From Candidatus Limnocylindrales bacterium (GTDB lineage: Bacteria; Chloroflexota; Limnocylindria; Limnocylindrales; CSP1-4): a DNA stretch of 64,000 bases. Each line of letters opens with the position of its first letter. Within the stretch, counting starts at the first letter, position 1. Made by a program: the position numbers and the translations under genes. The notes beneath the pieces are model-generated. The model was not told the DNA's origin and did no database searches. It was given only the letters and a program-made list of their open reading frames with translations. The stretch is from the NCBI GenBank assembly GCA_038239115.1, contig JBBSFD010000012.1:3347-67346 (forward strand), given 5' to 3'. Below are positions 7,944 to 53,429 of this stretch, piece by piece.

Positions 7944-8014
7944 GAGCTGACGATCGGACGGACCTCGGCGATATGCGAGACCTCACATCGCTTCAACCTT
8001 GCTACGCGCACACG

Positions 8015-10245: not shown

Positions 10246-10262
10246 CGGGCCGGCCGAGTGTA

Positions 10263-10982: not shown

Positions 10983-11280
10983 TCGGCCTCTGCTCCGATC
11001 TGGTGCCCGCCATGTGTGTGCTCAGTACATCAAACGGGCATAGACGAGGGCTTACCGGCCCTTGAACCGGCGATTTCGGGTCCCGCCAGGAGGTTGAAGG
11101 TGAAGGATGAGCACGGCCGAGGGCGCCGTGAGCGTGGGACGATGCCGAATCGATCGGCTCAAGGGACGGAGACGCACCAAAACGGATCTGAACCGTCAGT
11201 TTGAGGTTCTGAGCACACACCCCGGCGGCGCCGGAAACCACGCCAAGGCAGCCCGGGACGAGGACTCGGGAGCAGGAGGC

Positions 11281-15575: not shown

Positions 15576-15577
15576 GG

Positions 15578-16480
<903 letters not shown>

Positions 16481-16484
16481 CAAC

Positions 16485-17558: not shown

Positions 17559-17559
17559 G

Positions 17560-26584: not shown

Positions 26585-26597
26585 ACGGCAACCGGCC

Positions 26598-27605
26598 GTG
26601 ACCAGCGCCGATGTCGTCGCCCTCGTCCTGTGGCTGGGCGTGTCGACCTATGCCGTCTTCGGCGGGGCCGACTTCGGGGCCGGGCTATGGGACCTGCTCG
26701 CCGGTCCTACCGACCAGGGCGAGCAGCCCCGTGGCTTGATCGACGCCTCGATCGGGCCGGTCTGGGAGGCCAACCACACCTGGCTGATCTTCGACGTGGT
26801 GATCCTGTGGAGCGCCTTTCCGCTGGCCTTCTCGTCGCTCATGTCGACCCTGTACATCCCGCTCACTCTGGCGGCCTTCGGGATCATCCTGCGCGGGGCC
26901 GGCTTCGCGTTCCGCAAGTACACCAGCAAGCTGGCCGGCCGCCGGGCGTTCGGCGCCACCTTCGCCCTGTCGTCGGTCATCACCCCGTTCTTCCTGGGCT
27001 CCGCCCTCGGCGGGATCGCGTCGGGCCGGGTGCCGGCGGGCAATGCCGCCGGGGACCCGTGGACGAGCTGGCTCAACCCGACCTCCGTCCTGGTCGGTAG
27101 CCTGGCCGTGGCTGCCGGCGCCTACCTGGCCGCCGTCTTCCTGGTGGCGGCCGCTCGCCGGCGTGACGAGCCGAGCCTCGAGGCTTACTTCCGGCGACGC
27201 GCCCTGGCCATGGGCATCGTCGCCGGCGGGTTGGCGGTCGGCGGACTGGGCGTGATCGGGGCCGATGCGCCCGACCTGGCGGCCGGCCTGGCCGGGCGAG
27301 CCCTGCCACTGGTTGGCCTGTCGGTGGTCCTGGGCAGTGCCAGCCTGGTCCTCCTGGCTCGCGGCGCGACCCGCGGAATCCGGGCCGTGGCGGCCGGGGC
27401 GGTCACGGCCATCGTGTGGGGCTGGGGCCTGGCCCAGTACCCCTCGATCCTGCCCGGCTCCCTGAGCATCACCGCGGCGGCGGCTCCGGCTGGAACACTC
27501 GATGCCCTGCTCGTCATCTCGATTGCGGCGGCCCTCACGATCGGCCCGTCCCTGGCCCTGCTGTTCGTCCTCGACGGTCGCAGCCGGCTCGAGGCCGGCC
27601 ACTAG
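26598..27605 (+). CDS. cydB: cytochrome bd ubiquinol oxidase subunit II
   Basis: Polytopic membrane protein immediately downstream of cydA. N-terminal WLGVSTYAVFGGADFGAGLWDL is typical of CydB. Confidence 0.85.
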   Translation: MTSADVVALVLWLGVSTYAVFGGADFGAGLWDLLAGPTDQGEQPRGLIDASIGPVWEANHTWLIFDVVILWSAFPLAFSSLMSTLYIPLTLAAFGIILRGAGFAFRKYTSKLAGRRAFGATFALSSVITPFFLGSALGGIASGRVPAGNAAGDPWTSWLNPTSVLVGSLAVAAGAYLAAVFLVAAARRRDEPSLEAYFRRRALAMGIVAGGLAVGGLGVIGADAPDLAAGLAGRALPLVGLSVVLGSASLVLLARGATRGIRAVAAGAVTAIVWGWGLAQYPSILPGSLSITAAAAPAGTLDALLVISIAAALTIGPSLALLFVLDGRSRLEAGH

Positions 27606-27648: not shown

Positions 27649-28995
27649 TCAGCGCTGGAAGACGGTTCGGCCGCGCTTGATGACGGTCCGGACGAGGTTG
27701 GCGCCCGGCCAGTACGGGATCTGGCTGTGGCTGGGCACCCGCCAGATGACGAGGTCGGCCTGCTTGCCCAACTCGATCGAGCCGATGTCGTCACCGAGGC
27801 CGAGGGCGTGAGCCGGGTTGATCGTGACCGCCGCCAGGACCTCGGCCGGCGTGAGCTTCAGCTCCAGGCAGGCCACGGTCATCGCCAGGGGCAGGCTGGC
27901 CGTGGGCGAGGTGCCGGGATTGAAGTCGGTGGCGATCGCCACTGGCACACCGCGCTCGATGAGCGTGCGTGCCGGAGCGTAGTGGTCGGCCATCAGGAAC
28001 CAGGTCGTGGCCGGCAGCAGAGTCGCGACCACCGGATGCTCGGTTCCCGCCGCGGCCGCCAGGGCCGCGATGCCCGCCTCCGATGGAGCCGCCAGGTGAT
28101 CGGCCGACAGTGCCCCGATCTCCGCCGCCAGCTCGGCCCCACCCGATGGCGCCAGCTCGTCGGCGTGGAGCCGCGGCCGCATCCCGAAGGCCTCTGCCGC
28201 CATCAGGATCCGGCGGGACTGATCCGGGTTGAACACGCCCGACTCGCAGAAGACGTCGGCGAAGCGCGCCCGGCCCTGGGCGGCGATCCCCGGCAGCTGC
28301 TCCTCGAGCAGGTAGCGGGTGAAGGCCTCGGCCGGATCGCGCCGGCTGCGGTACTCGGCAGGCACGGCGTGGGCCCCCAGCCAGGTCGGCCAGATCTCGA
28401 TCGGTCCCACGCGGCCGAGCAGGTAGGCCGCCTCGAGGAGGCGCAGCTCGGTGGCCAGGTCCAGGCCGTAGCCGGACTTCGCCTCGATCGTGGTCACGCC
28501 GTGGCTCAGCATCTCCTCGAGCCAGCGCCGGCCGTGGACCATCAGCTCCTCGGTCGAGGCTGCCCTGGTGGCTTCGACGGTCGACAGGATGCCCCCACCA
28601 GCGGCCAGGATCTCGAGGTAGCCGGCGCCCTGCTGGCGGAGACGGAGCTCGGCCTCGCGACTGCCGCCGAACAGGAGATGGGTGTGTGCGTCGACCAGGC
28701 CGGGCGTGATCGTGCCGCCGGCCGCGTCGATCCGGGCGAAACGAGCGATCGGCAGGCCCTGGCCTTCGAGCGAGCGCTCAACCGCCGCCCGCGGTCCGAC
28801 CGCCACGATCCGGTCCTCCCAGGTCGCCACGATCGGCGCGTCGACCTCGCCCTCGGCACGCAGGACGGCAGGGTCGTCCTGGGCCGATCCGATCCGCAGG
28901 CCGCCGGCCAGGGTGGCGATCTCACTCGCGCCCAGGATCAGCATGCCGGCCGAGCGGCCGTCGGTCAGTCCCCCCTCGATCACCCGAAAGGTCAT
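27649..28995 (-). CDS. hutI: imidazolonepropionase
   Basis: Amidohydrolase fold with GLVDAHTHL, SGYGLD, LHADE, DFNPGTSP motifs. Start taken at the internal MTFRVIEGG; the track ORF extends to 29139 through an Arg-rich artefact. Confidence 0.85.
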   Translation of the reverse strand: MTFRVIEGGLTDGRSAGMLILGASEIATLAGGLRIGSAQDDPAVLRAEGEVDAPIVATWEDRIVAVGPRAAVERSLEGQGLPIARFARIDAAGGTITPGLVDAHTHLLFGGSREAELRLRQQGAGYLEILAAGGGILSTVEATRAASTEELMVHGRRWLEEMLSHGVTTIEAKSGYGLDLATELRLLEAAYLLGRVGPIEIWPTWLGAHAVPAEYRSRRDPAEAFTRYLLEEQLPGIAAQGRARFADVFCESGVFNPDQSRRILMAAEAFGMRPRLHADELAPSGGAELAAEIGALSADHLAAPSEAGIAALAAAAGTEHPVVATLLPATTWFLMADHYAPARTLIERGVPVAIATDFNPGTSPTASLPLAMTVACLELKLTPAEVLAAVTINPAHALGLGDDIGSIELGKQADLVIWRVPSHSQIPYWPGANLVRTVIKRGRTVFQR

Positions 28996-29005
28996 GGCCG
29001 GCGGA

Positions 29006-29986
29006 TCAGCCGTCGCCGCGCTGGGCCGAGGCCAGGCGCAGCTCCAGGATCTGCATCGGGCTGAAGTCGGGCAGCCGGAGATAACCGGCCGCCGAGGTAC
29101 AACGGTCTTCGACCGACGCCGAGGGATCGAACCCGGCATGGTCGGCCACGGCCAGGAAGGCGGCCAGCGGGCACAGGCCGATCAGCTCGGACTCGCGCAG
29201 GTCCAGCCCGTCGGCGGCAGCCTCCGCTCGAACGGTGTCCCAGACCAGCCACAGCGGGGTCACGGCAAAGTCGAGCAGGTTCATCGAGACCTGGGCGCAG
29301 GCCGGCCGATCCCGGGTCTCGGCCAGCTCGACACCCATCGCCTGGACCCGGGGCAGGCCGCCACCCGACTCGCGCACCCGGCGGGCGGTCCGCTTGGCCA
29401 GCTCGAGGTCATCCGAGGCCAGGTTGATGTTGTAGGCGATCAGGAACGGCCGCGCTCCGACGGCGACGGCGCCGGCCGACGGATGCATCCGGGCCGGTCC
29501 GAAGTCGGGCCCCCGGCCCTCCTGGCCGATCTCGACCTTCAGGCCTTCGTACTGGCCGCGCCGGACATCGGCCAGCTTGACCCGATCGGAACGGCTCGCC
29601 GCGGCAGCGTAGAGGTAGACCGGCAGGTCGAAGCGGCGGGCGATCCGGGCCCCGAAGTCGCGGGCAAGCTCGACGCACTCGTCCAGGGTCGTTTCGCCCA
29701 GGGGCACGAACGGAATCACATCGATCGCGCCAATCCGCGGGTGCTCGCCGGCCTGGCGCTCCATGTCGATCTCGCCGATCGCCACCTCGACCACCCGGTC
29801 CATGGCCAGGACCACGGCGTCGGCCTCGCCGGCCAGGGTCAGCACGCTCCGGTTGTGGCTGGGGTCGCTGGTCCGGTCGAGCAGGAGCGCACCGGGTGTC
29901 CGAACGACGGCCTCGGCCAGGCGATCCACGACCTCCGTTCGGCGGCCCTCGGAGAAGTTGGGAACGCACTCAACGAGCCTGACCAC
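29006..29986 (-). CDS. ftcD: glutamate formimidoyltransferase (formiminotransferase domain protein)
   Basis: N-terminus MVRLVECVPNFSEGRR matches the formiminotransferase N-subdomain signature (ECVPNFSEGR). Confidence 0.75.
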   Translation of the reverse strand: MVRLVECVPNFSEGRRTEVVDRLAEAVVRTPGALLLDRTSDPSHNRSVLTLAGEADAVVLAMDRVVEVAIGEIDMERQAGEHPRIGAIDVIPFVPLGETTLDECVELARDFGARIARRFDLPVYLYAAAASRSDRVKLADVRRGQYEGLKVEIGQEGRGPDFGPARMHPSAGAVAVGARPFLIAYNINLASDDLELAKRTARRVRESGGGLPRVQAMGVELAETRDRPACAQVSMNLLDFAVTPLWLVWDTVRAEAAADGLDLRESELIGLCPLAAFLAVADHAGFDPSASVEDRCTSAAGYLRLPDFSPMQILELRLASAQRGDG

Positions 29987-30084
29987 CGGTGCATCCTGCC
30001 ACGTCTGCCCGGCACCCGGCGGTCCTCCACGCAGGCCGCCTGTTCGGCCCGTAACTGCCGTACGTTAGATGCTAGGCTAACGCG

Positions 30085-31452
30085 ATGCCCGACCCGGAAC
30101 CGGTGGCCGAGCCTCGTCCCGAGCCCCGCCCTAACCTCTTCCACCACCCGAACTTTCGCAAGCTCTGGGTGGGCGACACGATCAGCCAGTTCGGCACGCA
30201 GGTCAGCCAGCTGGCGATCCCGCTGGTTGCGATCCTGATCCTCGGGGCGACGCCCTTCGAGGTCGCCCTGCTGGGCACTGTCGAGTTCCTGCCGTTCTTG
30301 CTGTTCACCCTGCCGGCCGGGGCCTGGGTTGACCGCCTTCAGCGCCGGCCGATCCTGATCACGGGCGACCTCGGCCGCGCCCTGTGCCTGATCTCGATCC
30401 CGATTGCCTACGAGCTTGGCGTGCTGACGATCGCCCAGCTCTACGTCGTCGGCTTCGCGATGGGCGTGCTGACCGTCTTCTTCGATGTTTCGTACCAGTC
30501 CTACCTGCCCTCGCTGGTCGAGCGCGACCAACTGGTCGAGGGCAATGCCAAGCTGCAGGCCAGCCAGTCGGCGGCCCAGATCCTCGGGCCCGGCTTCGGC
30601 GGCTACCTGATCGGGGTCCTGACCGCCCCGGTCGCGGTGATCGTTGACGCGATCAGCTACCTGGCCTCGGCGCTGTTCGTGTTCAGCATCCACGGCAGCG
30701 AGGCGCCGATCCCGCCCCGGGACGGCCCGCAAGGCAGCCGGGCCGAGCGCCTGCGCGGCTTCGGCGGCGAGATCCGGGAGGGCCTCAAGTTCGTTGTCGG
30801 GCACCCCTACCTGCGGATGATCGCGGGCGCGACGAGCAGCAGCAACCTCTTCTCGAACGTCGCGATGGGGATCTATCTCGTCTACGTCGTGCGCGTCCTT
30901 GGCCTCGACCCGCTGCGGATCGGCCTGGTCTTCTCGCTGGGCAGCATCGGGACGTTCGTGGGCGCCCTGGTGGCCAACAAGATCGCGGCCCGGATTGGGG
31001 TCGGCCGCACGATCGTGCTGTCGATGGCGCTCAACGGCCCGTCGGTACTGCTGATCGCGCTTGCCCCGGTGGGAGCCGCCGAGCCGTTCCTGATCGCCTC
31101 TGCCGCCCTGGGTGGCTTCAGCGCACTGATCTACAACATCAACCAAGTGAGCTTCCGGCAGGCGATCACGCCCGAGCGGATGCAGGGCCGGATGAATGCC
31201 ACGATGCGCTTCCTGGTCTGGGGCACGATCCCGATCGGCTCGGTGATCAGCGGGGTGCTGGCCACGATCTTCGGCCTGTCGGCCACGATCTGGGTCGGCG
31301 CGATCCTGTCGTTCACGCCGGTCCTGTTCCTGATCTTCTCGCCCATCCTGAGCATCAAGAAGATGCCCAGCAGCCCCGAGGACTGGGCGGCCCGCAACGA
31401 AGCGCTCGACGCCGCCGCGGCCGCCGAACCAGGACCGCCGCCGAAGATCTAG
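30085..31452 (+). CDS. MFS transporter (12-TM, EntS/macrolide-efflux-like)
   Basis: Twelve hydrophobic segments and the MFS loop motif near TM2-3 (DRLQRRPILITGDLGRA). Confidence 0.8.
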   Translation: MPDPEPVAEPRPEPRPNLFHHPNFRKLWVGDTISQFGTQVSQLAIPLVAILILGATPFEVALLGTVEFLPFLLFTLPAGAWVDRLQRRPILITGDLGRALCLISIPIAYELGVLTIAQLYVVGFAMGVLTVFFDVSYQSYLPSLVERDQLVEGNAKLQASQSAAQILGPGFGGYLIGVLTAPVAVIVDAISYLASALFVFSIHGSEAPIPPRDGPQGSRAERLRGFGGEIREGLKFVVGHPYLRMIAGATSSSNLFSNVAMGIYLVYVVRVLGLDPLRIGLVFSLGSIGTFVGALVANKIAARIGVGRTIVLSMALNGPSVLLIALAPVGAAEPFLIASAALGGFSALIYNINQVSFRQAITPERMQGRMNATMRFLVWGTIPIGSVISGVLATIFGLSATIWVGAILSFTPVLFLIFSPILSIKKMPSSPEDWAARNEALDAAAAAEPGPPPKI

Positions 31453-31458
31453 GGCGCC

Positions 31459-33141
<1,683 letters not shown>

Positions 33142-33206
33142 GGCCCGATTCTAGCCGCCGGGCGGCTGGTCGGGCCGGCGCGCGAGCCGTCGGGTACGCT
33201 CCCGTC

Positions 33207-34538
33207 ATGGCCATCCTTGCCGTCCGCCGCTGGTCCAGCCTGGATCGGGCCGAGCGCGAGCGCCTGCTGGCGCGCTCGACCGCGGCGATCTTCGATCCGG
33301 CCCTGATGGCCTCGATCGAGGCGATCTTCCGCGACGTAGCCGAGCGCGGAGACGCTGCAGTCCTCGAGGCAACGGCCAGGTTTGACGGGATCCAGTTCGC
33401 TTCCGCCGGCGAGCAACGGCTGCCGCGCGCGGACCTCGTGGCGGCTCATGCCGCGATCGACCCGGGGCTCCTGGCCGGGATTCGCGAGGCGATCGCCAAC
33501 AGCCGCCGGTTCAACGAGGCGCAGGTCGCCCAGACCGGCCGTTCCTGGGCGGACGAGGTCCGTCCAGGCTTCGTGGTCGGGGAGCAGTTCGCGCCGATCC
33601 CCTCAGTCGGCCTGTTCGTGCCCACCGGCAAGGCGTCGTATCCGTCGGTGCTGTGCCAGATCGGGACACCCGCCGTTGTCGCCGGCGTAGACCGGATCGT
33701 CGTGCTCGTGCCGCCCGTCCCGGGCGGCGATGGGAGCGTGGATCCGGCGACCCTGGCCGTCGCCCACGAGCTGGGCATCGACGAGGTCTACCGGGCCAAC
33801 GGTCCGGCCGGGATCGCCGCCCTGACCTTCGGCACGGCCACGATCCCGCGCGTGCGCAAGATCGTCGGGCCGGGCAGCCCGGCCGTGACGGCGGCCCAGG
33901 TCCTGGCCCAGCGCTATGGCGTCGCGACCCAGATGCTGTGCGGGCCATCGGAGAGCCTGATCATCGCCGACGAGACGGCCGACCCGTGGCGGCTGGCGAT
34001 CGATCTGCTCAACGAGGCCGAGCACGGCGTCGACTCGGCAGCAACGCTGGTCACGACCTCGCCGGTCGTGGTCGACGCGGTCGAGCTTGCCCTGGCCGAG
34101 CAGTTGCCCCAACTAAGTGCGGTTCGAGCCGACTCCGCCCGGGCAGTCCTGTCCGATCTCGGTGGCGCGATCCTCGTCGACACCCTCGCCGAAGCGGTCG
34201 CGCTGGCCAACGAGTACGCCGCTGAGCACGTCCAGCTGGCCACCGCCGATCCCGAAGCCACCCTGGCCGGTCTGCGCTACGCCGGGGAGGCGCTGCTCGG
34301 CCAGGACACCCCGATCGGTGCCTCGAGCTACACCCTTGGCATCCCGGCCACCCTGCCGACGGGCGGCTACGCCCAGCTCAACGGCGGGGTCACGGCCCGC
34401 ACGTTCATGACGTCGACGTCCACGGCCCGGCTCTCACCGGAGGCCCTGGCCGAGCTGGCCGAGCCGACCCTGGCCCTGGCCGATCACGAGTGCTTCCCGG
34501 CCCACGCCGCGGCGTTCCGGTTGCGCGGCCTAGGCTAG
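33207..34538 (+). CDS. histidinol dehydrogenase family protein (HisD paralog located in the hut cluster)
   Basis: HisD-like motifs GLFVPTGKASYPS, GPGSPAVTAAQ, NEAEHG. Divergent from hutU. Confidence 0.75.
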   Translation: MAILAVRRWSSLDRAERERLLARSTAAIFDPALMASIEAIFRDVAERGDAAVLEATARFDGIQFASAGEQRLPRADLVAAHAAIDPGLLAGIREAIANSRRFNEAQVAQTGRSWADEVRPGFVVGEQFAPIPSVGLFVPTGKASYPSVLCQIGTPAVVAGVDRIVVLVPPVPGGDGSVDPATLAVAHELGIDEVYRANGPAGIAALTFGTATIPRVRKIVGPGSPAVTAAQVLAQRYGVATQMLCGPSESLIIADETADPWRLAIDLLNEAEHGVDSAATLVTTSPVVVDAVELALAEQLPQLSAVRADSARAVLSDLGGAILVDTLAEAVALANEYAAEHVQLATADPEATLAGLRYAGEALLGQDTPIGASSYTLGIPATLPTGGYAQLNGGVTARTFMTSTSTARLSPEALAELAEPTLALADHECFPAHAAAFRLRGLG

Positions 34539-34611
34539 CCGGCGGTTCTTGCCCCGTACCGCTTGATATTCCGGAAGAACCGACCGGCACGGCGCTCACG
34601 CGGGGCGGTCA

Positions 34612-35079
34612 TCACTGGTCGGGCAGTCCGTCACCGATCGTGTATGTCGCCTGGATCGCGTTGTCGGGCCGATCGACCCACTTCGAGTAGCCATGGCCCT
34701 CGAAGAGCATCGCTTCGTCCTCGTAGTCCTGCTCGCCGTCGGTATCGGAGTTGAACGAGCGATAGACACTGGGCTCAGTCCAGTCGTGAGTCAGGACCCT
34801 GAGGTCGAGCTCGAGCTGCTTGAGATGAGCATCGGCCTCGAGGTCAGCCGCCGATTCGGCTTGGGCAGCCGGGCCACCAGGATGGTCGCGAGTGTCATGT
34901 GGACCCTTGACCAGATCACACCAGCACGGGTGGGACTCGAGGTCAGCGCCGGCGTAAGCGGCCGGAGCATCCCCAACGGGGGAATCAGGCCGCGGGGCTC
35001 CGCAGTTGTAGCAATGCGTCTCCGAGACATTAAGCGTGTGGCACGCCGGGCACTCCCATGCGTCAACGCTCACGCTCAC
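34612..35079 (-). CDS. hypothetical zinc-ribbon protein with acidic C-terminal region
   Basis: N-terminal CPACHTLNVSETHCYNCG (CxxC...CxxC) ribbon, then a D/E-rich tail. No family recognised. Confidence 0.4.
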   Translation of the reverse strand: MSVSVDAWECPACHTLNVSETHCYNCGAPRPDSPVGDAPAAYAGADLESHPCWCDLVKGPHDTRDHPGGPAAQAESAADLEADAHLKQLELDLRVLTHDWTEPSVYRSFNSDTDGEQDYEDEAMLFEGHGYSKWVDRPDNAIQATYTIGDGLPDQ

Positions 35080-35101
35080 TCCCCGGCCACGACAGCCAGG
35101 C

Positions 35102-35770
35102 CTAGCCGGCGGTCGGCTTGCGGCCGGGTCGGCCGGGCATTCCGAGGCGCCACCAGACGAAGGCCACGACGGCGCTGACCACGATCACCAGGATCAGCGT
35201 GTCGAAGGGCTGGAGGGTGTGCCGGATGTCGACCCAGTTCGCGCCCAGGACCGTCCCGGCATAAACCAGACCGACCGACCACAGGAACGCGCCCGCGGCC
35301 GAGTAGGCGATGAACTTGCCCAGGTTCATTCGGGCGACCCCGGCCGGGAAGCTGATGAACGTCCGGACGACCGGCAGGAAGCGGCTGAAGAAAGCGGTCT
35401 GCGAGCCCCACTTGGCAAAGAACCGCTCGGCCGTGTCGATCTCGTGCGGCCGGATGAGCACGTACTTGCCGTAGCGCTCGAGGAGGGGCCGGCCGCCCCA
35501 GGCTCCGATCGCATAGGCGATCAGCGAGCCGATCACGTTGCCGATCGTGGCCGCGATGACGACCAGCCAGAAATTCCAGGGTCCGCCGGTCAACGGCTCG
35601 ACCGCGTGCGGGTCGGACACGAGGAACCCGGCAAAGGGCAGGATCAGCTCGGACGGCAGCGGGATCATGGCCGATTCGATCGCGCTGGCGACCAGGACCC
35701 CGAGATAGCCGATCCACCCGTACAGGTTGGTCAGGAACGGGATGACGAACTGGTCGAGGAAGGCGAGCAT
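35102..35770 (-). CDS. DedA/SNARE-associated (TVP38/TMEM64) family membrane protein
   Basis: MLAFLDQFVIPFLTNLYGWIGYLGVLVASAIESAMIPLPSELILPFAGFLV is a DedA-type start. The upstream part of the track ORF overlaps divergent hutH and is judged non-coding. Confidence 0.65.
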   Translation of the reverse strand: MLAFLDQFVIPFLTNLYGWIGYLGVLVASAIESAMIPLPSELILPFAGFLVSDPHAVEPLTGGPWNFWLVVIAATIGNVIGSLIAYAIGAWGGRPLLERYGKYVLIRPHEIDTAERFFAKWGSQTAFFSRFLPVVRTFISFPAGVARMNLGKFIAYSAAGAFLWSVGLVYAGTVLGANWVDIRHTLQPFDTLILVIVVSAVVAFVWWRLGMPGRPGRKPTAG

Positions 35771-35828
35771 CAGGCCGCGCCAGGGGGCTGGGTCACGCCG
35801 GGCAGGATAGCCGACTACCATCGACGCC

Positions 35829-37400
35829 GTGACCGACCCAATCGTCCTCACCGGCGCCACGCTGACGATCGCCGACGTCGAGGCGGTGGCTCGCCAGGGC
35901 GTCACGGCCAGCCTTGATCCCGACGCCCGGGCCCGGGTCCAGGAGTCGCGCGAGGTGATCGAGCGCCTGGTCAACACCGGGCAGGTCGTCTACGGGGTGA
36001 CCACAGGGTTCGGCGACCTGGCCACCACGTTCATCGCCCCGGCGGATGCCGCCCGCCTCCAGCAGAACCTGCTGATGAGCCATGCCGCGGGCGTCGGATC
36101 GGCGTTCCCGGGCGAGGTCGTCCGGGCGATGCTCCTGCTCCGGGCCAACACCCTGGCCCTCGGCCACAGCGGCTGCCGGCCGCTGATCATCGATCGGCTG
36201 CTGGAGATGCTCGAGCTGGGCATCCACCCGGTCGTGCCCGAGCAGGGCTCGCTGGGCGCGTCGGGCGATCTCGCCCCACTGGCCCACCTGGCCCTGCCCC
36301 TGATCGGGCGGGGCGAGGTCGAGTTCCACGGCCAGCACGTGCCCGCCCTGATCGCGCTGCGTGAGGCCGGTCTCGAACCGATCGTCCTCGAGGCGAAGGA
36401 AGGCCTGGCCCTCCTCAACGGAACCCAGATGATGTCGGCCGTGGGTGCCCTCGCCCTGGCCGATGCCGATCGCCTGGCCCGGACGGCCAGTGTCGCGGCG
36501 GCCCTATCGGTCGAAGCCCTGCTGGGCACGGACGTTGCCTTCGCTGCCGAGTACCAGCTCGCCCGACCCCACCCTGGACAGATCACCGTGGCCGCCGAGC
36601 TGCGCCACCTCCTGCGCGACTCGACCCTCCAGACGAGCCACCACGGCCACGCCCACAAGGTCCAGGACCCCTACTCGCTGCGCTGTGTGCCGCAGGTCCA
36701 TGGCGCGGTGCGCGATGCGCTCGACTACCTCCGCCGGGTGCTCGTGATTGAGCTCAACAGCGCCACTGATAACCCGCTCGTCTTTCCCGGTGGAGGTAGC
36801 GCCGACCCCAGCGCGATCGCGACCGGCGGCGGCCTCGTGATCAGCGGCGGCAACTTCCACGGCGAGCCGATCGGCCTGGCCCTCGACTTCGCCAAGTTGG
36901 CCGTGGCCGAGCTCGGCTCGATCAGCGAGCGACGCACGGCGCTCCTCGTGGACGCCCGGCTCAACGGCGGGCTGCCACCGTTCCTGGCCGCCTCGTCGGG
37001 GGTGGATTCGGGCCTGATGATCCTGCAGTACACGGCGGCGGCCCTGGTGTCCGAGAACAAGGTCCTGGTTCATCCGGCGACGGCCGATTCGATCCCGACC
37101 AGCGCCAACCAGGAAGACCACGTGTCGATGGGCTCAATCGCCGCTCGCCACGCCCGGACGGTGGTCGAGCACGTCGAGCTGGTGATCTCGATCGAGCTGA
37201 TCGTGGCCGCCCAGGCGCTCGACCTGCGCCTCGAGCTGCTGCCCGGCACCGAGGCCGGAGTCGGCGTGCGCGAGGCCCACGCCGCGATCCGGGCCGTCGT
37301 CCCGCACCTGGACGCCGATCGGGAGCCGGGGCCCGACCTGGCCGCCGCCCTGCGCCTGGTTCGGAGCGGTCAGCTGGCGGGCCTGGCCGGGCAGCCATGA
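35829..37400 (+). CDS. hutH: histidine ammonia-lyase
   Basis: GSLGASGDLAPL contains the Ala-Ser-Gly triad that forms the MIO cofactor. Full-length HAL/PAL collinearity. Confidence 0.9.
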   Translation: MTDPIVLTGATLTIADVEAVARQGVTASLDPDARARVQESREVIERLVNTGQVVYGVTTGFGDLATTFIAPADAARLQQNLLMSHAAGVGSAFPGEVVRAMLLLRANTLALGHSGCRPLIIDRLLEMLELGIHPVVPEQGSLGASGDLAPLAHLALPLIGRGEVEFHGQHVPALIALREAGLEPIVLEAKEGLALLNGTQMMSAVGALALADADRLARTASVAAALSVEALLGTDVAFAAEYQLARPHPGQITVAAELRHLLRDSTLQTSHHGHAHKVQDPYSLRCVPQVHGAVRDALDYLRRVLVIELNSATDNPLVFPGGGSADPSAIATGGGLVISGGNFHGEPIGLALDFAKLAVAELGSISERRTALLVDARLNGGLPPFLAASSGVDSGLMILQYTAAALVSENKVLVHPATADSIPTSANQEDHVSMGSIAARHARTVVEHVELVISIELIVAAQALDLRLELLPGTEAGVGVREAHAAIRAVVPHLDADREPGPDLAAALRLVRSGQLAGLAGQP

Positions 37401-38167
37401 TCCGGATCGTCGACGTGGTCGACGCCGAGGGATTCGGCCTGGTCCCGCCCTGCGCCGACCCGGGCTTCGATCACCGCTCGTGCGACTACTGGGAAGACGC
37501 CGACCGAGGCTCGAAGGCCGCTCGGCTGGGCTGGCTCGAACCGGCCGCCGCAGCCTCGGCCTCGAAGCGCCCGAACCCGTTCGGCGACGACGATGACGTT
37601 CCACTCGGCGCCCCGGCCAGCAACCCGTTCGCTTTCACCGGGAGCGGCCTGTCGCCGGCGGCCAACCCGCTCCTGGAGGAGCGCACCGTCATCGCCGACA
37701 ATCCGTTCGCTCCGAGGCCCAAGGCGCAGTCGGGGGTCGGCCGCGATGGACCACGCAAGCTCGGCCTGCTGACCCGCGGCCTGGCCGTCTTCGGGAGCTA
37801 CGCCAAGGTCCTCCTGGTCGGCGATCGGCCGGCGTGCTATGCCCAGTTCGGACCCTTGTCGGCCTACCCCCGGGCGCTCCGACTGCGCGAGCTCTACCCG
37901 CAGCTGCCCGATGCTCCCCTGCCGGCCGTCATCACCTGCATCGCGACGAGCTCCTCGGAGCGCAGACGCGGCTATGCCCAGGTGCTCGTGGCCGCCGTCT
38001 GCGATGACCTGGCCGAGCGCGGCTTCGCGGCGGTGGAGGCGTATCCGCAGGCCGGTGTCCAGCCCGATTCGACCAGCGCGGCCACGCCCGGCTTCTGGCT
38101 CGGGTGCGGGTTCGGGCTGGCCGTCGATGACGAGCGGTTCCCCGTCCTGCGCCGGGAGCTCGATTGA
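37397..38167 (+). CDS. hypothetical protein with C-terminal GNAT-like acetyltransferase fold
   Basis: ATGA overlap with the hutH stop (co-transcribed). C-terminal RRGYAQVLVAAVCDDLAERGFAAVEAYPQ resembles the GNAT acetyl-CoA binding core. The N-terminal half is low complexity. Confidence 0.45.
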   Translation: MIRIVDVVDAEGFGLVPPCADPGFDHRSCDYWEDADRGSKAARLGWLEPAAAASASKRPNPFGDDDDVPLGAPASNPFAFTGSGLSPAANPLLEERTVIADNPFAPRPKAQSGVGRDGPRKLGLLTRGLAVFGSYAKVLLVGDRPACYAQFGPLSAYPRALRLRELYPQLPDAPLPAVITCIATSSSERRRGYAQVLVAAVCDDLAERGFAAVEAYPQAGVQPDSTSAATPGFWLGCGFGLAVDDERFPVLRRELD

Positions 38168-38829
38168 TCACGGCTCGGCGGTGGTCGGCCGGCCTGCTCG
38201 TCGTGGGCCTGCTCGTCGGCGGGTGCAGCGCCAATCTCAGTCCGGCGCCGGCCGTCTCGGCCGCGGCGGCAACGGCCTTTGCGCCTTCGCCGGCTGCAAC
38301 CCCCAGCGTGGCAGCGCCGTCGGCTTCCCCAGTTGCCTCGGCGGGTTCCTCACCGTCGGCCTCGGGCAGCGCCGGCCCCGCGATCCCGATCGATCCGCTC
38401 CTGCTGGCGATCCTGCCGGTCACGGTCGGCGGCCAGCCGATCAGCGAGATGCCCGACATCGAAACCAACCTGATGACCGACCCGGACCTCCAGACCAACG
38501 CCGCGTCGCTGGCAGTGGCCCTCGGGATCAACTCGGCCACCGGCGACTTCGCGTACGTGGCGATCATCCAGCTCAAGCCGCTGGTCTTCAGCGACGCCTG
38601 GTACACATCCTGGCGGCAGAGCTACGACGAGGGCGCCTGCTCCCAGTCGAGCGGGCTGAAGAGCACGAGCAGCACGACGATCGCCGGCCGCCGGGTCTTC
38701 GTCGGCCATTGCGCCGGCGGGGCGCTGACCTATCACGTCCACCTGACCGGGCCCGACCGGGTGGTCTCGATCACCTCGGTCGGCAGCGCGGGCTTCGGGG
38801 CGCTGGTCGTCGGCGCGCTCAAGCCGTAG
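38164..38829 (+). CDS. hypothetical lipoprotein
   Basis: Signal peptide/lipobox LLVVGLLVGGCS. Ala/Ser/Pro-rich linker, then a globular domain with two Cys. ATGA overlap with the upstream gene. Confidence 0.45.
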   Translation: MITARRWSAGLLVVGLLVGGCSANLSPAPAVSAAAATAFAPSPAATPSVAAPSASPVASAGSSPSASGSAGPAIPIDPLLLAILPVTVGGQPISEMPDIETNLMTDPDLQTNAASLAVALGINSATGDFAYVAIIQLKPLVFSDAWYTSWRQSYDEGACSQSSGLKSTSSTTIAGRRVFVGHCAGGALTYHVHLTGPDRVVSITSVGSAGFGALVVGALKP

Positions 38830-38838
38830 GCAGGCCGG

Positions 38839-39519
38839 CTACTCCCAGGGTGTCTTGGGCGGCCGCCGAAGATGGGCCAGGTCGTTGAGCAGGATCAGGC
38901 GGGCATCGCCCGGCCCGGACCCGTGCTCGAACCGGAGCGCCGTCAGGTTGGCCTGTGACTGCTGGAGGCGGAGCCTGAACTCGCGGACCGCGATGCCCAG
39001 GGCGACGCATACGAGGATCCGATTGAGCGAGCTGTGGGCGACGACGAGGATCGGCCGTTCGGCCAGCCGGGCATCGCCGCTGAGGCGCTCGTGGGCGGTC
39101 AGCTGGTCGGCCAGGAACGAGGTCACCCGACGGGCCACGTCGTCGCCCGATTCGCCGCCCGGGCAGGCAATCGTGGCTGGATCGAGCTCCCAGGCGAGGC
39201 GCTCGACGGGGTCACGCTCCTCGATCTGGGCGTAGGTCAGGCCTTCCCAGTGGCCGTAATCCATCTCGCGCAGGCGCGGGTCGGCCTCGACCGGTGGGGC
39301 CTGGGGACTCCGGCCGGCGATGATCGCGGCCGTCTCACGGGCTCGAACGAGGGGGCTGCACAGGATCCGTTCGAAGCGGACCTTGTCCAGGCGGACCGCC
39401 AGGGCCATCGCCTGGGCCTGGCCGGCAGGCGACAGCTCCACGTCGATTCGCTGTCCGAGGTGCTGCTCTGGATCCGAGCGGGGGGTCAGGCCGTGGCGCG
39501 TCAGGACCAGGGTGAGCAC
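38839..39519 (-). CDS. histidine phosphatase superfamily (phosphoglycerate mutase-like) protein
   Basis: LVLTRHG catalytic RHG motif at the N-terminus and a downstream HSSLNR-type His. Confidence 0.7.
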   Translation of the reverse strand: MLTLVLTRHGLTPRSDPEQHLGQRIDVELSPAGQAQAMALAVRLDKVRFERILCSPLVRARETAAIIAGRSPQAPPVEADPRLREMDYGHWEGLTYAQIEERDPVERLAWELDPATIACPGGESGDDVARRVTSFLADQLTAHERLSGDARLAERPILVVAHSSLNRILVCVALGIAVREFRLRLQQSQANLTALRFEHGSGPGDARLILLNDLAHLRRPPKTPWE

Positions 39520-39568
39520 GGCAGGAGTCTACGGGATGCGAGAATAGGTCCGGAGGTAGCGCATCTCG

Positions 39569-39733
39569 ATGACTGACCCACACGACGGAGGCCACGGCGG
39601 CCACGATGCGGCTGGCGGCCACGACGAGGCCCTCGGTCCGGTCGACCTGGCGATGTGGGGCGTGGGCGTGCTGGGCGTGGCGGTTGGCCTGCTCGTGTGC
39701 CTGTGCTTCGCCTTCGCCACGGGAGTGCTCTAG
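39569..39733 (+). CDS. small His-rich single-TM membrane peptide (54 aa)
   Basis: ATG preceded by GGAGG. MTDPHDGGHGGHDAAGGHDEALGPVDLAMWGVGVLGVAVGLLVCLCFAFATGVL. Tightly wedged between two genes (49-bp gap upstream; stop codon abuts the fhs stop). Below the track cutoff. Confidence 0.3.
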   Translation: MTDPHDGGHGGHDAAGGHDEALGPVDLAMWGVGVLGVAVGLLVCLCFAFATGVL

Positions 39734-41440
39734 CTAGAACAGGCCGACGATGTTCCCGCTGGCGTCGATGTCGATGCGCTCGCCACCCGGAATCGAGGGC
39801 AGCCCGGGCATCGTCCGCATCTCGCCGATGAGCGGCGTCACGAAGCCTGCCCCGGCCGAGAGGCGGACATCGCGGATCGGGATGGTGAAGCCGCTGGGTC
39901 GACCCTTCAGGTTCGGATCGTGGCTGATCGAGTACTGGGTCTTGGCCATGTTCACCGCGAGATGGCCGTAACCGAGCTCCTCGTACAGCTTGAGCGCCCG
40001 GCTGGCCGCCGGCAGGTATTCGACCCCGGCCGCCCCGTAGACCTCGGTCGCGATGGTTTCGATCTTCATGCGCAGTGAGGCTTCGTCGAGGTACAGAAAA
40101 TGGAAGTCAGGCGAGCCGATCTGGGCCGTGTCCCAGACGGCCCGGGCCAGCGCCTCGGCCCCCGCCCCACCGTCGGTGAAATGGGTCGATACGAGCGCGT
40201 CGCGGGCGCCGGCTGCCAGGGCCACCTCCTGGATCGCGGCCACTTCGGCGGGCGTATCGGTGGGGAAGGCGTTGATCGCAACGACCACCTCCACGCCATA
40301 GCTCCGGACGATCTCGATCTGCTTAGCCAGGTTCTGGGCGCCCAGCCGAACCGCCTCGACGTTCTCCTCGAGCAGGGCCGGGTCGAGCGGCTTGCCGGCC
40401 ACGATCCGACCCACGCCGCCGTGCATCTTGAGCGCGCGGATCGTGCCCACGATGACCGCCGCATCCGGGCGCAGGCCTGACTGGCGGCACTTGATGTCGA
40501 AGAACTTCTGGGCGCCCATGTCGGCACCGAAGCCGGCCTCGGTGCACACGATGTCGTTGGTCACCAAGGCCAGCCGGTCGGCCAGGACCGAGTTGTTGCC
40601 ATGGGCGATGTTGGCGAACGGCCCGCAATGGACGAAGGCTGGTCCACCCTCGAGCGTCTGGAGCAGGTTCGGCTTGATCGCGTCGACGAGCAGCACGGTC
40701 ATCGCTCCGGCAACCTTGAGATCCTCGAGGGTGACCGGCTTGGCATCGCGGGTATAGGCCACGACGACCCGGCTGAGCCGGTTGCGCAGGTCGTGGATGT
40801 CGGAGGCGAGGGCCAGGATCGCCATCACCTCGGAGGCGACCGTGATCATCGTCTCGGTTTCGCGCGGGATCCCGCCATCGCGGCCACCCAGGCCGATGAC
40901 CACCTTGCGCAGAGCGCGATCGCTGATGTCCACGACCCGTGGCCAGGTGATCGTGAGGGGGTCGATGCCGAGTGGATTCTTGTGATAGAGGCTGTTGTCG
41001 AGGAAGGCGGCCGCCAGGTTGTGGGCCGCGCCGATGGCATGGACATCGCCCGTCAGGTGCAGGTTGAAATCCTCCATCGGGATGACCTGGCTGTAGCCGC
41101 CGCCGGCCGCTCCACCCTTGATCCCGAACACCGGCCCGAGCGACGGCTGGCGGATCGTGACCGCGGCCCGCTTGCCGATCCGGTTCAAGCCCTGGACGAG
41201 GCCCACGACCGTGGTGGATTTGCCCTCGCCCAGGGGCGTCGGGGTGATGCCGGTGACGAGGATGTACTTGCCCTTTGGGTTAGAAGCCTCCAGGCGCTCG
41301 ATCGCGGCCAGCGGGACCTTGGCCTTGCGCGGGCCGTACTGCTCGATCTCGTCGTCGCGCAGGCCCAGCTCGCGGGCGATATCGATGATCGGCCGGGGCG
41401 TGACGGATCGGGCGATCTCGAGGTCGGTGGGAAAGGTCAT
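39734..41440 (-). CDS. fhs: formate--tetrahydrofolate ligase
   Basis: Full-length FTHFS collinearity (TPLGEGKSTT P-loop, GGAAGGGY, FANIAHGNNS). Start MTFPTDLEI. The upstream part of the 1080-aa track ORF is artefact. Confidence 0.9.
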   Translation of the reverse strand: MTFPTDLEIARSVTPRPIIDIARELGLRDDEIEQYGPRKAKVPLAAIERLEASNPKGKYILVTGITPTPLGEGKSTTVVGLVQGLNRIGKRAAVTIRQPSLGPVFGIKGGAAGGGYSQVIPMEDFNLHLTGDVHAIGAAHNLAAAFLDNSLYHKNPLGIDPLTITWPRVVDISDRALRKVVIGLGGRDGGIPRETETMITVASEVMAILALASDIHDLRNRLSRVVVAYTRDAKPVTLEDLKVAGAMTVLLVDAIKPNLLQTLEGGPAFVHCGPFANIAHGNNSVLADRLALVTNDIVCTEAGFGADMGAQKFFDIKCRQSGLRPDAAVIVGTIRALKMHGGVGRIVAGKPLDPALLEENVEAVRLGAQNLAKQIEIVRSYGVEVVVAINAFPTDTPAEVAAIQEVALAAGARDALVSTHFTDGGAGAEALARAVWDTAQIGSPDFHFLYLDEASLRMKIETIATEVYGAAGVEYLPAASRALKLYEELGYGHLAVNMAKTQYSISHDPNLKGRPSGFTIPIRDVRLSAGAGFVTPLIGEMRTMPGLPSIPGGERIDIDASGNIVGLF

Positions 41441-42360
41441 GGACCGTTGACTCCAGCTTTGAGGGCCGATGTTGAGCGCGCCGCGCCGGCCTGGGCGCGG
41501 GCGGCCTGCAGGACGTGGGTCATGAGCAGGGCGTTGGTGACCGGGCCAACGCCGCCGGGAACCGGCGTGATTGCCCCAGCGACCAGGCGGGCCGAGTCGA
41601 AGTCGACGTCGCCCACCAGGACCTGACCGGCCGGGCCCCGATCGACCATGTTGATGCCCACGTCGACGACCGTCGCCCCCGGTTTGATCATCGCGCCGGT
41701 GACCAGCCCGGGCCTGCCCGCTGCAACCACCACGACGTCGGCCGTCGCCAGCATGACGGCGAGGTTGGGCGTGCGCGAGTGGCAGATCGTGACGGTTGCG
41801 TCCTCCCGGGTCAGGAGGATGGCCGCCGGCCAGCCGACCACGTTGGACCGGCCGATGACCACGACCTGCTTGCCCCTCAGCTCGATCCCCGAGCGCTTGA
41901 GGAGCTCCACCGCGGCCTGCGCCGTCGTCGGCACGAAACCCGGGTGGCCGAGCAGGAGCCGGCCGGCATTGAGGGGATGAATGCCATCGACGTCCTTGGT
42001 CGGGTCGATTGTGTCGGTCACGGTCGACAGTGGGATCGACTTGGGCAGCGGCATCTGGACGATGATCCCGCTGACCAGCGGGTCGCGGTTCAGCTCGATC
42101 AGGTGGTGTCGGAGCTGCATGGCCGATGCCTGACCCGGAATCTCGACGAGGCGACCGTCGATGCCGGCCGAGCGACAGCCGCGCAGGATCTGCTGGAGGT
42201 AGACCGCCGACGGCGCATCGGCGCCGACGATCACCACGCCCAGGGCCGGAGGGTAGCCGTGATCCACCTTGAACTGGGCGACCTCGGCCTGGACCGAGGC
42301 GCGAATATCCGCCGCGATCGGGCTGCCCAGGAGGAGTCGAGCCTCGCTCGGGTGGGTCAC
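41437..42360 (-). CDS. folD: bifunctional methylenetetrahydrofolate dehydrogenase/methenyl-THF cyclohydrolase
   Basis: GIIVQMPLP, VVVIGRSNVVGWP, VDVGIN and PVPGGVGPVT motifs of FolD. GTG start inferred at 42360. ATGA overlap with fhs. Confidence 0.85.
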   Translation of the reverse strand: MTHPSEARLLLGSPIAADIRASVQAEVAQFKVDHGYPPALGVVIVGADAPSAVYLQQILRGCRSAGIDGRLVEIPGQASAMQLRHHLIELNRDPLVSGIIVQMPLPKSIPLSTVTDTIDPTKDVDGIHPLNAGRLLLGHPGFVPTTAQAAVELLKRSGIELRGKQVVVIGRSNVVGWPAAILLTREDATVTICHSRTPNLAVMLATADVVVVAAGRPGLVTGAMIKPGATVVDVGINMVDRGPAGQVLVGDVDFDSARLVAGAITPVPGGVGPVTNALLMTHVLQAARAQAGAARSTSALKAGVNGP

Positions 42361-42365
42361 TCCGA

Positions 42366-43049
42366 TCAGGCGCCCTCGGCCAGCGCCGCGCGGAGCTCGC
42401 TCGAGGCCACCACCTCGCGGGTCGCCAGCGATAGCTCGTCGATCTCGCCGAGCAGCTCGCCGACCCGGGCCGACATCGCGCTGCTGAAGTCCGGATCGCC
42501 CACGGCAGGCAGGTTGACCAGCACGTTGGCCCCGGCCCCATGCGCAGCCGCCGTTGCGAGCAGGCAAGCCACGGCGAGATCGCTCGATGCGTTCTGGTTG
42601 CTCCGGCCGGCCAGGGCCTGGGCTGCCTCGACCACCTCGCGGCAGGCCTCGACGCAGGCCAACGGCACGTTCGAGGCAGCTCGGGCGGCGGAGCGCAGGG
42701 CCATCTTCCGAGCAGCCTGCTCGTCGTCCGTTTCCTTGGGCTGGCGCAGCGCGGCGGCGAAGACAGCGTACGCGGCCGCGTCGTCGTCGGCCAGGCGCAA
42801 GAGGCGCTGGGCAAGCTCCCGGCCGGCGGCCCCTGCTGAGGCGTGAGTAGCGGCATGGTCGGCGTACTTCGGCCGACCCTCCGACAGGGTCGCCACCATG
42901 GCCACCAGGCTCGCGGCCAAGGATGCTGCGACGGCAGAGGCGCTGCCTCCGCCCGGAACCGGCTCGGACGACGCAAGGGCCTCGACGAACCCGGCGACGG
43001 TCACGTCCGCGAAGCGCGCCGGCTCGGCCGATACAGGTCCGCTGGGCAT
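42366..43049 (-). CDS. formiminotetrahydrofolate cyclodeaminase / methenyl-THF cyclohydrolase family (FTCD C-terminal-like) protein
   Basis: All-helical protein. VAGFVEALASSEPVPGGGSASAVAASLAASLVAMV matches the cyclodeaminase domain signature. First gene of the cyclodeaminase-folD-fhs operon. Confidence 0.7.
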   Translation of the reverse strand: MPSGPVSAEPARFADVTVAGFVEALASSEPVPGGGSASAVAASLAASLVAMVATLSEGRPKYADHAATHASAGAAGRELAQRLLRLADDDAAAYAVFAAALRQPKETDDEQAARKMALRSAARAASNVPLACVEACREVVEAAQALAGRSNQNASSDLAVACLLATAAAHGAGANVLVNLPAVGDPDFSSAMSARVGELLGEIDELSLATREVVASSELRAALAEGA

Positions 43050-43199
43050 GACCGAATTGTAGGCGCGCCGGTTGCCGAGGCAGAGGAGATGTCTCGCAGG
43101 GCAGGCACGGTACCGGCGTGCCGCCCCGCGAGACTTTATGCCCGTCGACGACCGGGGGAGGGCCCGGTGCGCAGGCTCAGATGTTGGACCGAGCGCCGG

Positions 43200-43529
43200 T
43201 CAGGCGGCGATCCGGGACTCGGCCAGTCCTCGCGATTCGATCCGGTCGGCGGCCTCCACGACCCAACGCCTCGGCCGGTGCTGGTAGGTCACCTGGAAAC
43301 GCGCACGCGCCGTCTGGACCTCGAAGAACGAGCGCGGCCCGGTCTCGACCGGATAGGCCGATCGCTCCTCGCGGACGAGATTGTGCGACGTGATTGGCAG
43401 GCGCTCGTCGGCCCAGGTGATCTCGCGCGGCCGGCCATCGAACCAGTCGGTCTTGACGTGGACGTGCGTCGGCTCGACTCGGAGCATTGCCATTGGTCCA
43501 CTCCTTCCCAGACCCTTGGGCGGGCCCAA
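43200..43529 (-). CDS. small hypothetical protein preceded by two SOS (Cheo-type) boxes
   Basis: ORF ...MAMLRVEPTHVHVKTDWFDGRPREITWADERLPITSHNLVREERSAYPVETGPRSFFEVQTARARFQVTYQHRPRRWVVEAADR. Globular-looking, no recognised family. Operator pair sits immediately upstream. Confidence 0.45.
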   Translation of the reverse strand: MGPPKGLGRSGPMAMLRVEPTHVHVKTDWFDGRPREITWADERLPITSHNLVREERSAYPVETGPRSFFEVQTARARFQVTYQHRPRRWVVEAADRIESRGLAESRIAA

Positions 43530-43545: not shown

Positions 43546-43591
43546 CAGAACGTGTGTTCGGTATGCCTGACACTAGATCGAACATCCGTTC
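43546..43591. promoter_or_regulatory. two tandem LexA (Cheo-type, GAAC-N4-GTTC) boxes
   Basis: AGAACGTGTGTTCG and CGAACATCCGTTCG seen directly, about 18 bp apart. They lie between the dinB stop and the start of the small gene at 43529. Confidence 0.55.
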
Positions 43592-46044: not shown

Positions 46045-46073
46045 TTGACAATCGAACGGACGTTCTGTACCGT
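46045..46073. promoter_or_regulatory. lexA promoter with embedded SOS box: TTGACA - at CGAACGGACGTTCT g - TACCGT
   Basis: Seen directly: -35 TTGACA, 17-bp spacer containing a Cheo-type box CGAACGGACGTTC (fits CGAACRNRYGTTYC), -10-like TACCGT, then AGGAGG RBS and the lexA ATG at 46093. Confidence 0.65.
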
Positions 46074-52961: not shown

Positions 52962-53429
52962 GCTCCCACGCGGGGCGTCGACCTTTATAGCCGCCTTACT
53001 CTCCCGGAGCGGATAGGTAAGGTGCCGTATTGACCGGTCTAGAGCGTCCTCCCTATAGTCCGGTCGACTTTCCAGTACGGAAGTACTAGAAAGCAATGTC
53101 AAGTTCGGACGCGCTGACGCACCACCTGAAATGGGCACTTGGGGTGGGGCCGAGCGACTGGTGCAACCGGCGAACACATCAAGTCTGGGCCGGCTCCCGC
53201 TCGGAGCCGGAGGAGGAGTCCTATGAAGGCCGAAGCCGCAATCAAGGGCTGGTAGTCGAGCACGATTGTGCTTACTCGACTGATTCGTGGGGTCCTTCTG
53301 ATCAGCACCGTCCTGGGGACCCTGCTGGCCGGAGGGGCCTCACTGAGGGTGTTTTAGGACGTTGGTCCTATTCCGGGGAGGACCCGGAGGGGTTAGATTC
53401 TCTGCGCCGACTGAATAAGCGGAACTGAG

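Follow-up and report, generated by a model that had tools for sequence, protein, structure and literature searches.

The window analysed here, a 64-kb stretch of DNA with a GC content of approximately 70%, matched metagenome-assembled genomes (MAGs) of Candidatus Limnocylindrales (lineage Chloroflexota, soil or freshwater) and carried genes for histidine utilisation (Hut) and folate-linked one-carbon (C1) metabolism at positions 27649-43049 (all coordinates are positions in the window). These genes probably encode an ordinary tetrahydrofolate (THF)-dependent, formiminotransferase-type histidine utilisation system, whose cyclodeaminase would be supplied by an operon consisting of an FTCD_C-family gene, folD, and fhs. 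The Hut pathway is invariant up to formiminoglutamate, after which three routes are known, one of which proceeds via a COG3643 formiminotransferase (PMC3223725). In the proposed pathway, HutH, HutU, and HutI would convert histidine to N-formiminoglutamate (FIGLU), after which FtcD would transfer the formimino group to THF, yielding glutamate and 5-formimino-THF. The FTCD_C-folD-fhs operon opens with the only FTCD_C-family gene in the neighbourhood, whose product would then act as cyclodeaminase and form 5,10-methenyl-THF and ammonia. The C1 unit would thereby enter the general folate pool, from which, via 10-formyl-THF, Fhs could release formate, ATP, and free THF if it operates in the direction that we infer, while reduction of methenyl-THF to methylene-THF by FolD would provide an alternative exit.

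Mechanical lists of open reading frames (ORFs) were full of spurious frames because of the high GC content of the window. Gene limits were therefore set by codon-position GC in combination with Pfam and NCBIfam scans, and identities were judged against curated NCBIfam equivalog cut-offs for hutI, ftcD, hutU, hutH, and fhs and against Pfam cut-offs for folD and the FTCD_C-family gene. The following features are central to the proposed pathway:

27649-28998, minus strand: hutI, imidazolonepropionase (TIGR01224, 439 bits, cut-off 298)
29006-29986, minus strand: ftcD, glutamate formimidoyltransferase (TIGR02024, 329 bits, cut-off 221; Pfam FTCD_N and FTCD)
31459-33141, minus strand: hutU, urocanate hydratase (TIGR01228, 954 bits, cut-off 375)
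35829-37400, plus strand: hutH, histidine ammonia-lyase (TIGR01225, 666 bits, cut-off 539)
39734-41440, minus strand: fhs, formate--tetrahydrofolate ligase (NF010030, 785 bits, cut-off 652)
41437-42354, minus strand: folD homologue (both Pfam FolD domains)
42366-43049, minus strand: FTCD_C-family gene (PF04961, 172 bits, cut-off 24.5)
43056-43061, minus strand: TACAAT -10-like box, 6 nt ahead of the FTCD_C start codon

All genes named in the original prediction, which had been made from the DNA letters alone, were found by these scans at or near the coordinates it gave. Its list omitted a histidinol dehydrogenase gene (hisD) and a Zn-ribbon ORF within the cluster, and its hutI was correctly identified but started at 29139, an upstream in-frame ATG that would make the gene overlap ftcD. 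The HutH translation carried the Ala-Ser-Gly triad (within GASGDLAPL) that forms the 4-methylideneimidazole-5-one (MIO) group, and HutU scored below the cut-offs of the NCBIfam thiourocanate models. FtcD was 100% identical to a protein (P0001) encoded on a 71.7-kb NCBI contig, and its closest named homologues were from Candidatus Limnocylindrales and other Chloroflexota MAGs. A 1080-aa ORF (39734-42976) that would represent a triple fusion was rejected as a read-through: in the codon-position GC plot the high-GC3 frame switched around 41.5 kb, within the fhs-folD-FTCD_C stretch, and the frame plot resolved three genes in two frames. A tRNA-Pro(GGG) reported by ARAGORN (85 nt, 40085-40169, minus strand) was situated inside fhs, was not seen by Rfam, and is probably a false positive.

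The hut genes were organised in three transcription units, ftcD-hutI, hutU, and hutH-GNAT-lipoprotein, while FTCD_C-folD-fhs formed a single C1 unit. The start of hutI was located 7-10 nt past the ftcD stop codon (10 nt in the gene calls on the identical contig). The GNAT-like gene, originally described as translationally coupled to hutH, overlapped hutH by 4 nt (ATGA); the GNAT-like and lipoprotein genes also overlapped by 4 nt (TTGA). In the C1 unit, folD and fhs overlapped as ATGA, and the FTCD_C stop codon was found 11 nt ahead of the GTG start of folD. FtcD contained the FTCD_N and FTCD domains without an FTCD_C domain and is thus a transferase only; transferase and cyclodeaminase-family domains were encoded by separate genes approximately 12 kb apart rather than in one polypeptide. 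Pfam and NCBIfam scans found neither an arginase-fold HutG nor a HutF-like gene within the 64-kb window, which bears out, for this stretch, the prediction of a formimidoyltransferase without a recognisable hutG or hutF.

To place the window in context, genomes were scanned with the FTCD_C protein, and the window proteins were mapped onto the 15 resulting loci, of which 14 came from Limnocylindria/Chloroflexota MAGs and one from Desulfobacterales. The gene order conserved in approximately 14 Limnocylindria species was dnaB-lexA-rplI-dinB-FTCD_C-folD-fhs-(HisPhos)-DedA-hutH-GNAT-lipoprotein-hutU. In four of these loci (L010, L011, L016, and L017), hutU directly followed the lipoprotein gene; hutU, ftcD, and hutI were contiguous in L003, and the upstream regions of L011 likewise showed ftcD-hutI after hutU. 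This order in the relatives, together with the contiguous genes of L003, indicated that the ancestral state, as read from gene order, is one nearly continuous C1-plus-hut region. In sister species, FTCD_C-folD-fhs is situated only 2-3 kb from hutH-...-hutU-ftcD-hutI. In the sub-clade of the window, which includes L002 and L006, the DedA-hutH-GNAT-lipoprotein segment was inverted, and hisD, a major facilitator superfamily (MFS) gene, and cydAB were gained between the pieces. The division into two blocks approximately 12 kb apart that had been predicted was thus confirmed as a distance, but it reflects a local rearrangement of this sub-clade.

A context census of FTCD_C genes provided evidence from outside the class. 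Metagenomes scanned with an alignment of FTCD_C proteins yielded 80 loci, which were annotated by tblastn; 60 were informative after exclusion of 5 loci of the Limnocylindria clade and 15 that were too short to judge. The FTCD_C gene adjoined ftcD or other hut genes in 52 of these 60 loci: 48 with ftcD/hut genes only and 4 with hut genes plus folD and/or fhs. Four further loci showed folD or fhs only, and the remaining four neither. The four loci with hut genes plus folD and/or fhs were arranged as hutH-hutU-ftcD-hutI-FTCD_C-folD (L035 and L047), ftcD-FTCD_C-fhs (L068), and ftcD-FTCD_C...fhs-folD (L092). The Desulfobacterales locus of the genome scan (L020) showed hutU-ftcD-FTCD_C-hutI. These associations support a cyclodeaminase role for the FTCD_C gene. 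No FTCD_C gene adjoined ftcD in any Limnocylindria ftcD locus examined. As an FtcD with transferase domains only depends on a cyclodeaminase to recycle THF, its evident partner is the FTCD_C gene encoded with folD and fhs. Together with the equivalog and Pfam matches, the census upheld the overall logic of the original prediction, in which HutH, HutU, HutI, and FtcD channel the C1 unit to THF, with FTCD_C and Fhs available to process it.

The identity of the next step was affected by an unusual feature of FolD. Alignment to FolD structures in the PDB showed an Ile where the YxxxK motif has its catalytic Lys (YLQQI, within SAVYLQQILR); solved structures show, for example, ETYMASK (8wfc) here, and this Lys corresponds to K54 of the E. 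coli and K56 of the human enzyme. Mutants of human K56 reportedly lose cyclohydrolase activity and keep dehydrogenase activity, as Schmidt et al. are said to have found in 2000 (Biochemistry 39:6325). The YxxxK Lys has been described as a catalytic and likely proton-transfer residue of the cyclohydrolase step (PMC3368264). Ile occupied this position in every Limnocylindria FolD orthologue that spanned the motif, with the Gln and Asp equivalents kept. FolD proteins without this Lys are frequent: among the 150 nearest representatives of clusters at 50% identity, 52 had another residue at the Lys position and 3 were gapped, and most of the top-ranked representatives belonged to this non-Lys or gapped set. 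In other phyla, four of five FolD proteins with an FTCD_C gene as neighbour had no Lys, and two of these four were encoded within complete hut operons. The FolD of the window is consequently predicted to be probably a dehydrogenase only, which would make the routine annotation as "bifunctional FolD" probably wrong for this subfamily.

Conversion of methenyl-THF to 10-formyl-THF is then probably not a FolD step, and the loss of the catalytic Lys led us to assign this conversion to the FTCD_C protein (acting in an FchA-like manner) or to spontaneous hydrolysis. The original scheme, in which FolD formed 10-formyl-THF, is doubtful in view of the Lys-to-Ile change in the window and in all orthologues spanning the motif. 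Without the cyclohydrolase Lys, FolD would be dispensable for the formate-producing route and would connect methenyl-THF to methylene-THF. A single FTCD_C enzyme might, tentatively, perform both the deamination of 5-formimino-THF and the hydrolysis of methenyl-THF in Limnocylindria. Such a dual enzyme would replace the lost cyclohydrolase half of FolD, so that C2 of histidine would flow through FtcD, FTCD_C, and Fhs without FolD, whose sole link would be to methylene-THF. That FolD without the Lys recurs beside FTCD_C genes in other phyla (4 of 5 loci) hints that such a division of labour could be general, though undescribed. Two close FolD relatives had unusual domain architectures: in P0244 and P0246 a Lys-less FolD was fused to an enoyl-CoA hydratase-fold domain, and P0246 also contained a formyltransferase domain. 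Two apparent FTCD_C-FolD fusions (P0248 and P0327) contained only C-terminal FTCD_C fragments and were probably gene-call read-throughs.

Comparison of orthologous loci showed a TACAAT box 6-12 nt ahead of the FTCD_C start in nearly all of them, consistent with an own promoter of the leaderless type. The conserved promoter box of hutU was TAGAAT, and a longer conserved box, GCATAGCCGACTAYCMT, preceded hutH. A box specific to hutH, ATAGCCGACTAYC, occurred once (35807-35819). An operator shared by the hut and FTCD_C promoters was considered and rejected: only -10-like boxes were conserved, and the further matches to ATAGCCGACTAYC with up to 3 mismatches showed no connection to the other hut promoters or to that of FTCD_C. 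A scan for the sigma-70 consensus detected nothing in the region, and neither of the two terminator-like sites that it reported was near the C1 operon.

The strongest alternative is that FTCD_C-folD-fhs represents a purely housekeeping C1 module, in which Fhs would assimilate formate alongside a cyclohydrolase of the FchA type and a monofunctional methylene-THF dehydrogenase, and which would be near hut genes through inherited synteny only; formimino-THF would then be handled by an enzyme encoded elsewhere or decay non-enzymatically. Several observations weigh against a dedicated link to histidine degradation and fit such a module. By sequence, the FTCD_C protein matched FchA, a methenyl-THF cyclohydrolase, best among PDB entries (7vg4, E 3e-31) and the cyclodeaminase domain of rat FTCD less well (1tt9, E 3e-20); its identity to FchA (36%) equalled that to a hut-embedded homologue (36%). 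The same triad occurs without hut genes in acetogens (PMC3584212) and in C. perfringens (PMC7219735, citing Aluri et al. 2016). A FolD without the cyclohydrolase Lys needs a separate cyclohydrolase, and the conserved TACAAT promoter that belongs to the operon looks constitutive and has no hut-like operator. Comparison of orthologous loci revealed no motif common to the hut and C1 promoters, and no riboswitch (THF, ZTP, or other) was found near either block at Rfam gathering thresholds. Finally, dnaB, lexA, rplI, and dinB were as syntenic with the cluster as the C1 genes; as synteny also covers these unrelated genes, linkage within the class is no proof of co-function.

Nevertheless, this housekeeping alternative is unlikely. 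The FTCD_C protein scored 142 bits against the FchA equivalog model NF045657, far under its cut-off of 275, and its nearest relatives outside the clade were overwhelmingly ftcD-linked. In a neighbour-joining tree of 98 FTCD_C proteins, which carries no support values, the Limnocylindria clade joined ftcD/hutI-linked proteins and FchA (7vg4) was placed in another cluster. Moreover, FtcD requires a cyclodeaminase for THF recycling, and the examined Limnocylindria loci offered no other FTCD_C gene beside ftcD. Sequence alone cannot separate cyclodeaminase from cyclohydrolase for this protein; genomic context and the tree favour the former, and it is likely a formimino-THF cyclodeaminase (EC 4.3.1.4), possibly also acting as a methenyl-THF cyclohydrolase.

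A second alternative, that FtcD mainly moonlights in recycling of 5-formyl-THF as a replacement for 5-formyl-THF cycloligase (YgfA/5-FCL), while genes beyond the window supply a HutG or HutF/HutG' that hydrolyses FIGLU, is very improbable. Prokaryotic COG3643 formiminotransferases can stand in for this cycloligase, as shown by complementation of an E. coli ygfA mutant, and ygfA is generally missing from genomes that have the formiminotransferase-type Hut system (PMC3223725). However, the close junction of ftcD with hutI, its location within hutU-ftcD-hutI in relatives, and the absence from the 64-kb window of arginase-fold and HutF-like genes all argue against this role as the main one, with which a Hut role would in any case be compatible. 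The arginase-fold gene near the cluster in relative L004 was an agmatinase (TIGR01230, 221 bits, cut-off 174) rather than HutG (105 bits, cut-off 229).

The genes interspersed with and flanking the two blocks were as follows:

25226-27605, plus strand: cydA and cydB
30085-31452, plus strand: MFS_3/EntS-like transporter (Pfam MFS_1 and MFS_3)
33207-34538, plus strand: hisD, histidinol dehydrogenase, full-length (TIGR00069, 360 bits, cut-off 244)
34612-35079, minus strand: small Zn-ribbon ORF
35102-35770, minus strand: DedA/VTT membrane protein (Pfam VTT_dom)
37397-38167, plus strand: GNAT-like protein (weak Acetyltransf_1 match)
38164-38829, plus strand: putative lipoprotein with a VGGC lipobox (no family match)
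38839-39519, minus strand: histidine-phosphatase-fold enzyme, His_Phos_1 (PF00300, 161 bits)
43200-43493, minus strand: small ORF of 97 aa with a good Shine-Dalgarno sequence (no Pfam or NCBIfam match)
43652-44926, minus strand: dinB

The MFS gene was divergent from ftcD and kept at the same position in L002 and L004, and the DedA gene was divergent from hutH in all relatives. The hisD gene, which encodes the last step of histidine biosynthesis, was situated inside the catabolic cluster and divergent from hutU. It was also present in the clusters of L002 and L015 and absent from those of L003 and L004, the latter of which carried other histidine biosynthesis genes, encoding an imidazoleglycerol-phosphate dehydratase (IGPD) and an aminotransferase, near hutU. 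A catabolic paralogue was rejected, as the gene passed the hisD model and was absent from the cluster in farther relatives, and in view of the biosynthetic genes of L004; hisD is probably a biosynthetic gene. The GNAT gene followed hutH in all loci examined, and the relatives likewise had the lipoprotein gene between it and hutU. In the GNAT protein, a PPCADPGFDHRSCDYWED motif was conserved at the N-terminal end, three near-invariant NPF motifs were found in a disordered linker, and the GNAT core was C-terminal. Its family comprised more than 4500 members, of which the top 120 were 65-98% identical, with every source-given name being Limnocylindrales. An AlphaFold2 model of the protein (predicted local distance difference test score 69) matched only generic RimI/Ard1-type GNATs, and a specific function was therefore not assigned. 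The His_Phos_1 protein scored below every NCBIfam equivalog cut-off.

Homologues of the small ORF between dinB and FTCD_C (43200-43493) came from Limnocylindrales and from unnamed metagenome contigs only. Upstream of this ORF, two LexA boxes of the Cheo type (GAAC-N4-GTTC) were located at 43548-43559 and 43580-43591; the sole other LexA box in the 64 kb (46054-46065) was just upstream of lexA, giving three boxes found versus 0.68 expected. The ORF and its paired LexA boxes were kept in all Limnocylindria loci covering the interval, and the ORF was also present in the distant loci L061 and L024. Judging from its boxes and their conservation, it is probably an SOS gene of unknown kind. Between this ORF and the FTCD_C promoter, a very stable hairpin (43091-43134, minus strand; -30 to -40 kcal/mol, 13-18 bp) was found in 15 of 20 loci. 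Its stems covaried, and its 7-nt loop was CCGGUAC in 14 of the 15 loci and UCGGUAC in L018; it had no U tract and no Rfam entry, and may act as a terminator or represent an RNA element that has not been described. Regulation of the C1 operon by the SOS response via the two LexA boxes is unlikely, since the hairpin and the separate TACAAT box stand between the small ORF and FTCD_C.

Outside the cluster, a c-di-GMP-II riboswitch match just above threshold (53098-53180, plus strand; 54.3 bits, threshold 53.5) was located approximately 235 nt upstream of a gene (53415-54944) encoding a MASE9 and an HD_5 (HD-GYP-like) domain, and may represent feedback control of a c-di-GMP phosphodiesterase. The first part of the window (1-11000) had a lower GC content (0.64-0.66) and encoded a Fic/DOC protein (3660-4844), a tyrosine integrase (4990-5934), a NERD nuclease (5955-6575), and a large serine recombinase (8600-10198); it ended at a tRNA-Glu gene (10171-10245, minus strand) and looks like a mobile element integrated at a tRNA gene. 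At 15311-18783 (plus strand), an FAA-hydrolase-family gene, a Zn-dependent alcohol dehydrogenase gene, and a glycine C-acetyltransferase gene (Kbl; TIGR01825, 559 bits) occurred in a row, likely as a threonine-to-glycine degradation unit and another feeder of C1 metabolism.

For the abundant, uncultured Limnocylindria, these results imply that conversion of histidine to glutamate by the folate route can be annotated as possible, that the missing cyclodeaminase is likely encoded by the FTCD_C gene next to folD-fhs, and that their "FolD" should not automatically be annotated as bifunctional. The route had originally been described as notable and as known mainly from clostridia and mammals. It is instead the textbook third Hut branch and widespread in bacteria (PMC3223725, PMC8674449, PMC9239216), so that the pathway, while real, is an ordinary one that, with its enzymes and its connection to Fhs, is textbook knowledge or has been reported before. 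A four-enzyme FtcD route has been described in Synergistota, Bacteroidota, Treponematales, Mesotoga, and Anaerolineaceae (PMC8674449). A single table of genes up-regulated in F. nucleatum contains hutH, hutU, ftcD, a cyclodeaminase gene, and hutI together with an fhs located elsewhere (PMC9239216); it is the sole precedent cited for any co-regulation of the two blocks that might occur here.

As in the formiminotransferase branch of Fusobacterium, Bacteroidota, Synergistota, and Anaerolineaceae, the window encodes HutH, HutU, HutI, a transferase-only FtcD, and a separate FTCD_C-family protein, and as in F. nucleatum fhs is encoded away from the hut genes. In most lineages of this branch, however, the FTCD_C gene adjoins ftcD, whereas in Limnocylindria it heads the folD-fhs operon, and the hut genes of the window are broken into three transcription units. 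The window also resembles the fhs-fchA-folD clusters of acetogens (PMC3584212) and the corresponding C. perfringens module in that genes for FolD and Fhs accompany the one for an FTCD_C-family protein. A further likeness to the C. perfringens-type module is the predicted dehydrogenase-only character of FolD. The split C. perfringens system that Aluri et al. are said to have described in 2016 reportedly consists of a monofunctional FolD, an FchA cyclohydrolase, and Fhs. Unlike in these modules, the FTCD_C protein of the window falls below the FchA cut-off and groups with ftcD-linked proteins, and the presence of FtcD requires a cyclodeaminase role; moreover, no Wood-Ljungdahl genes were found nearby. 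Mammalian FTCD performs the same two steps, formimino transfer and cyclodeamination, with homologous transferase and FTCD_C domains, but as a fused octamer, through which channelling cannot be assumed for proteins encoded by separate genes 12 kb apart. Specific to the present case are the placement of the FTCD_C gene in a folD-fhs operon and the Lys-less FolD encoded next to it.

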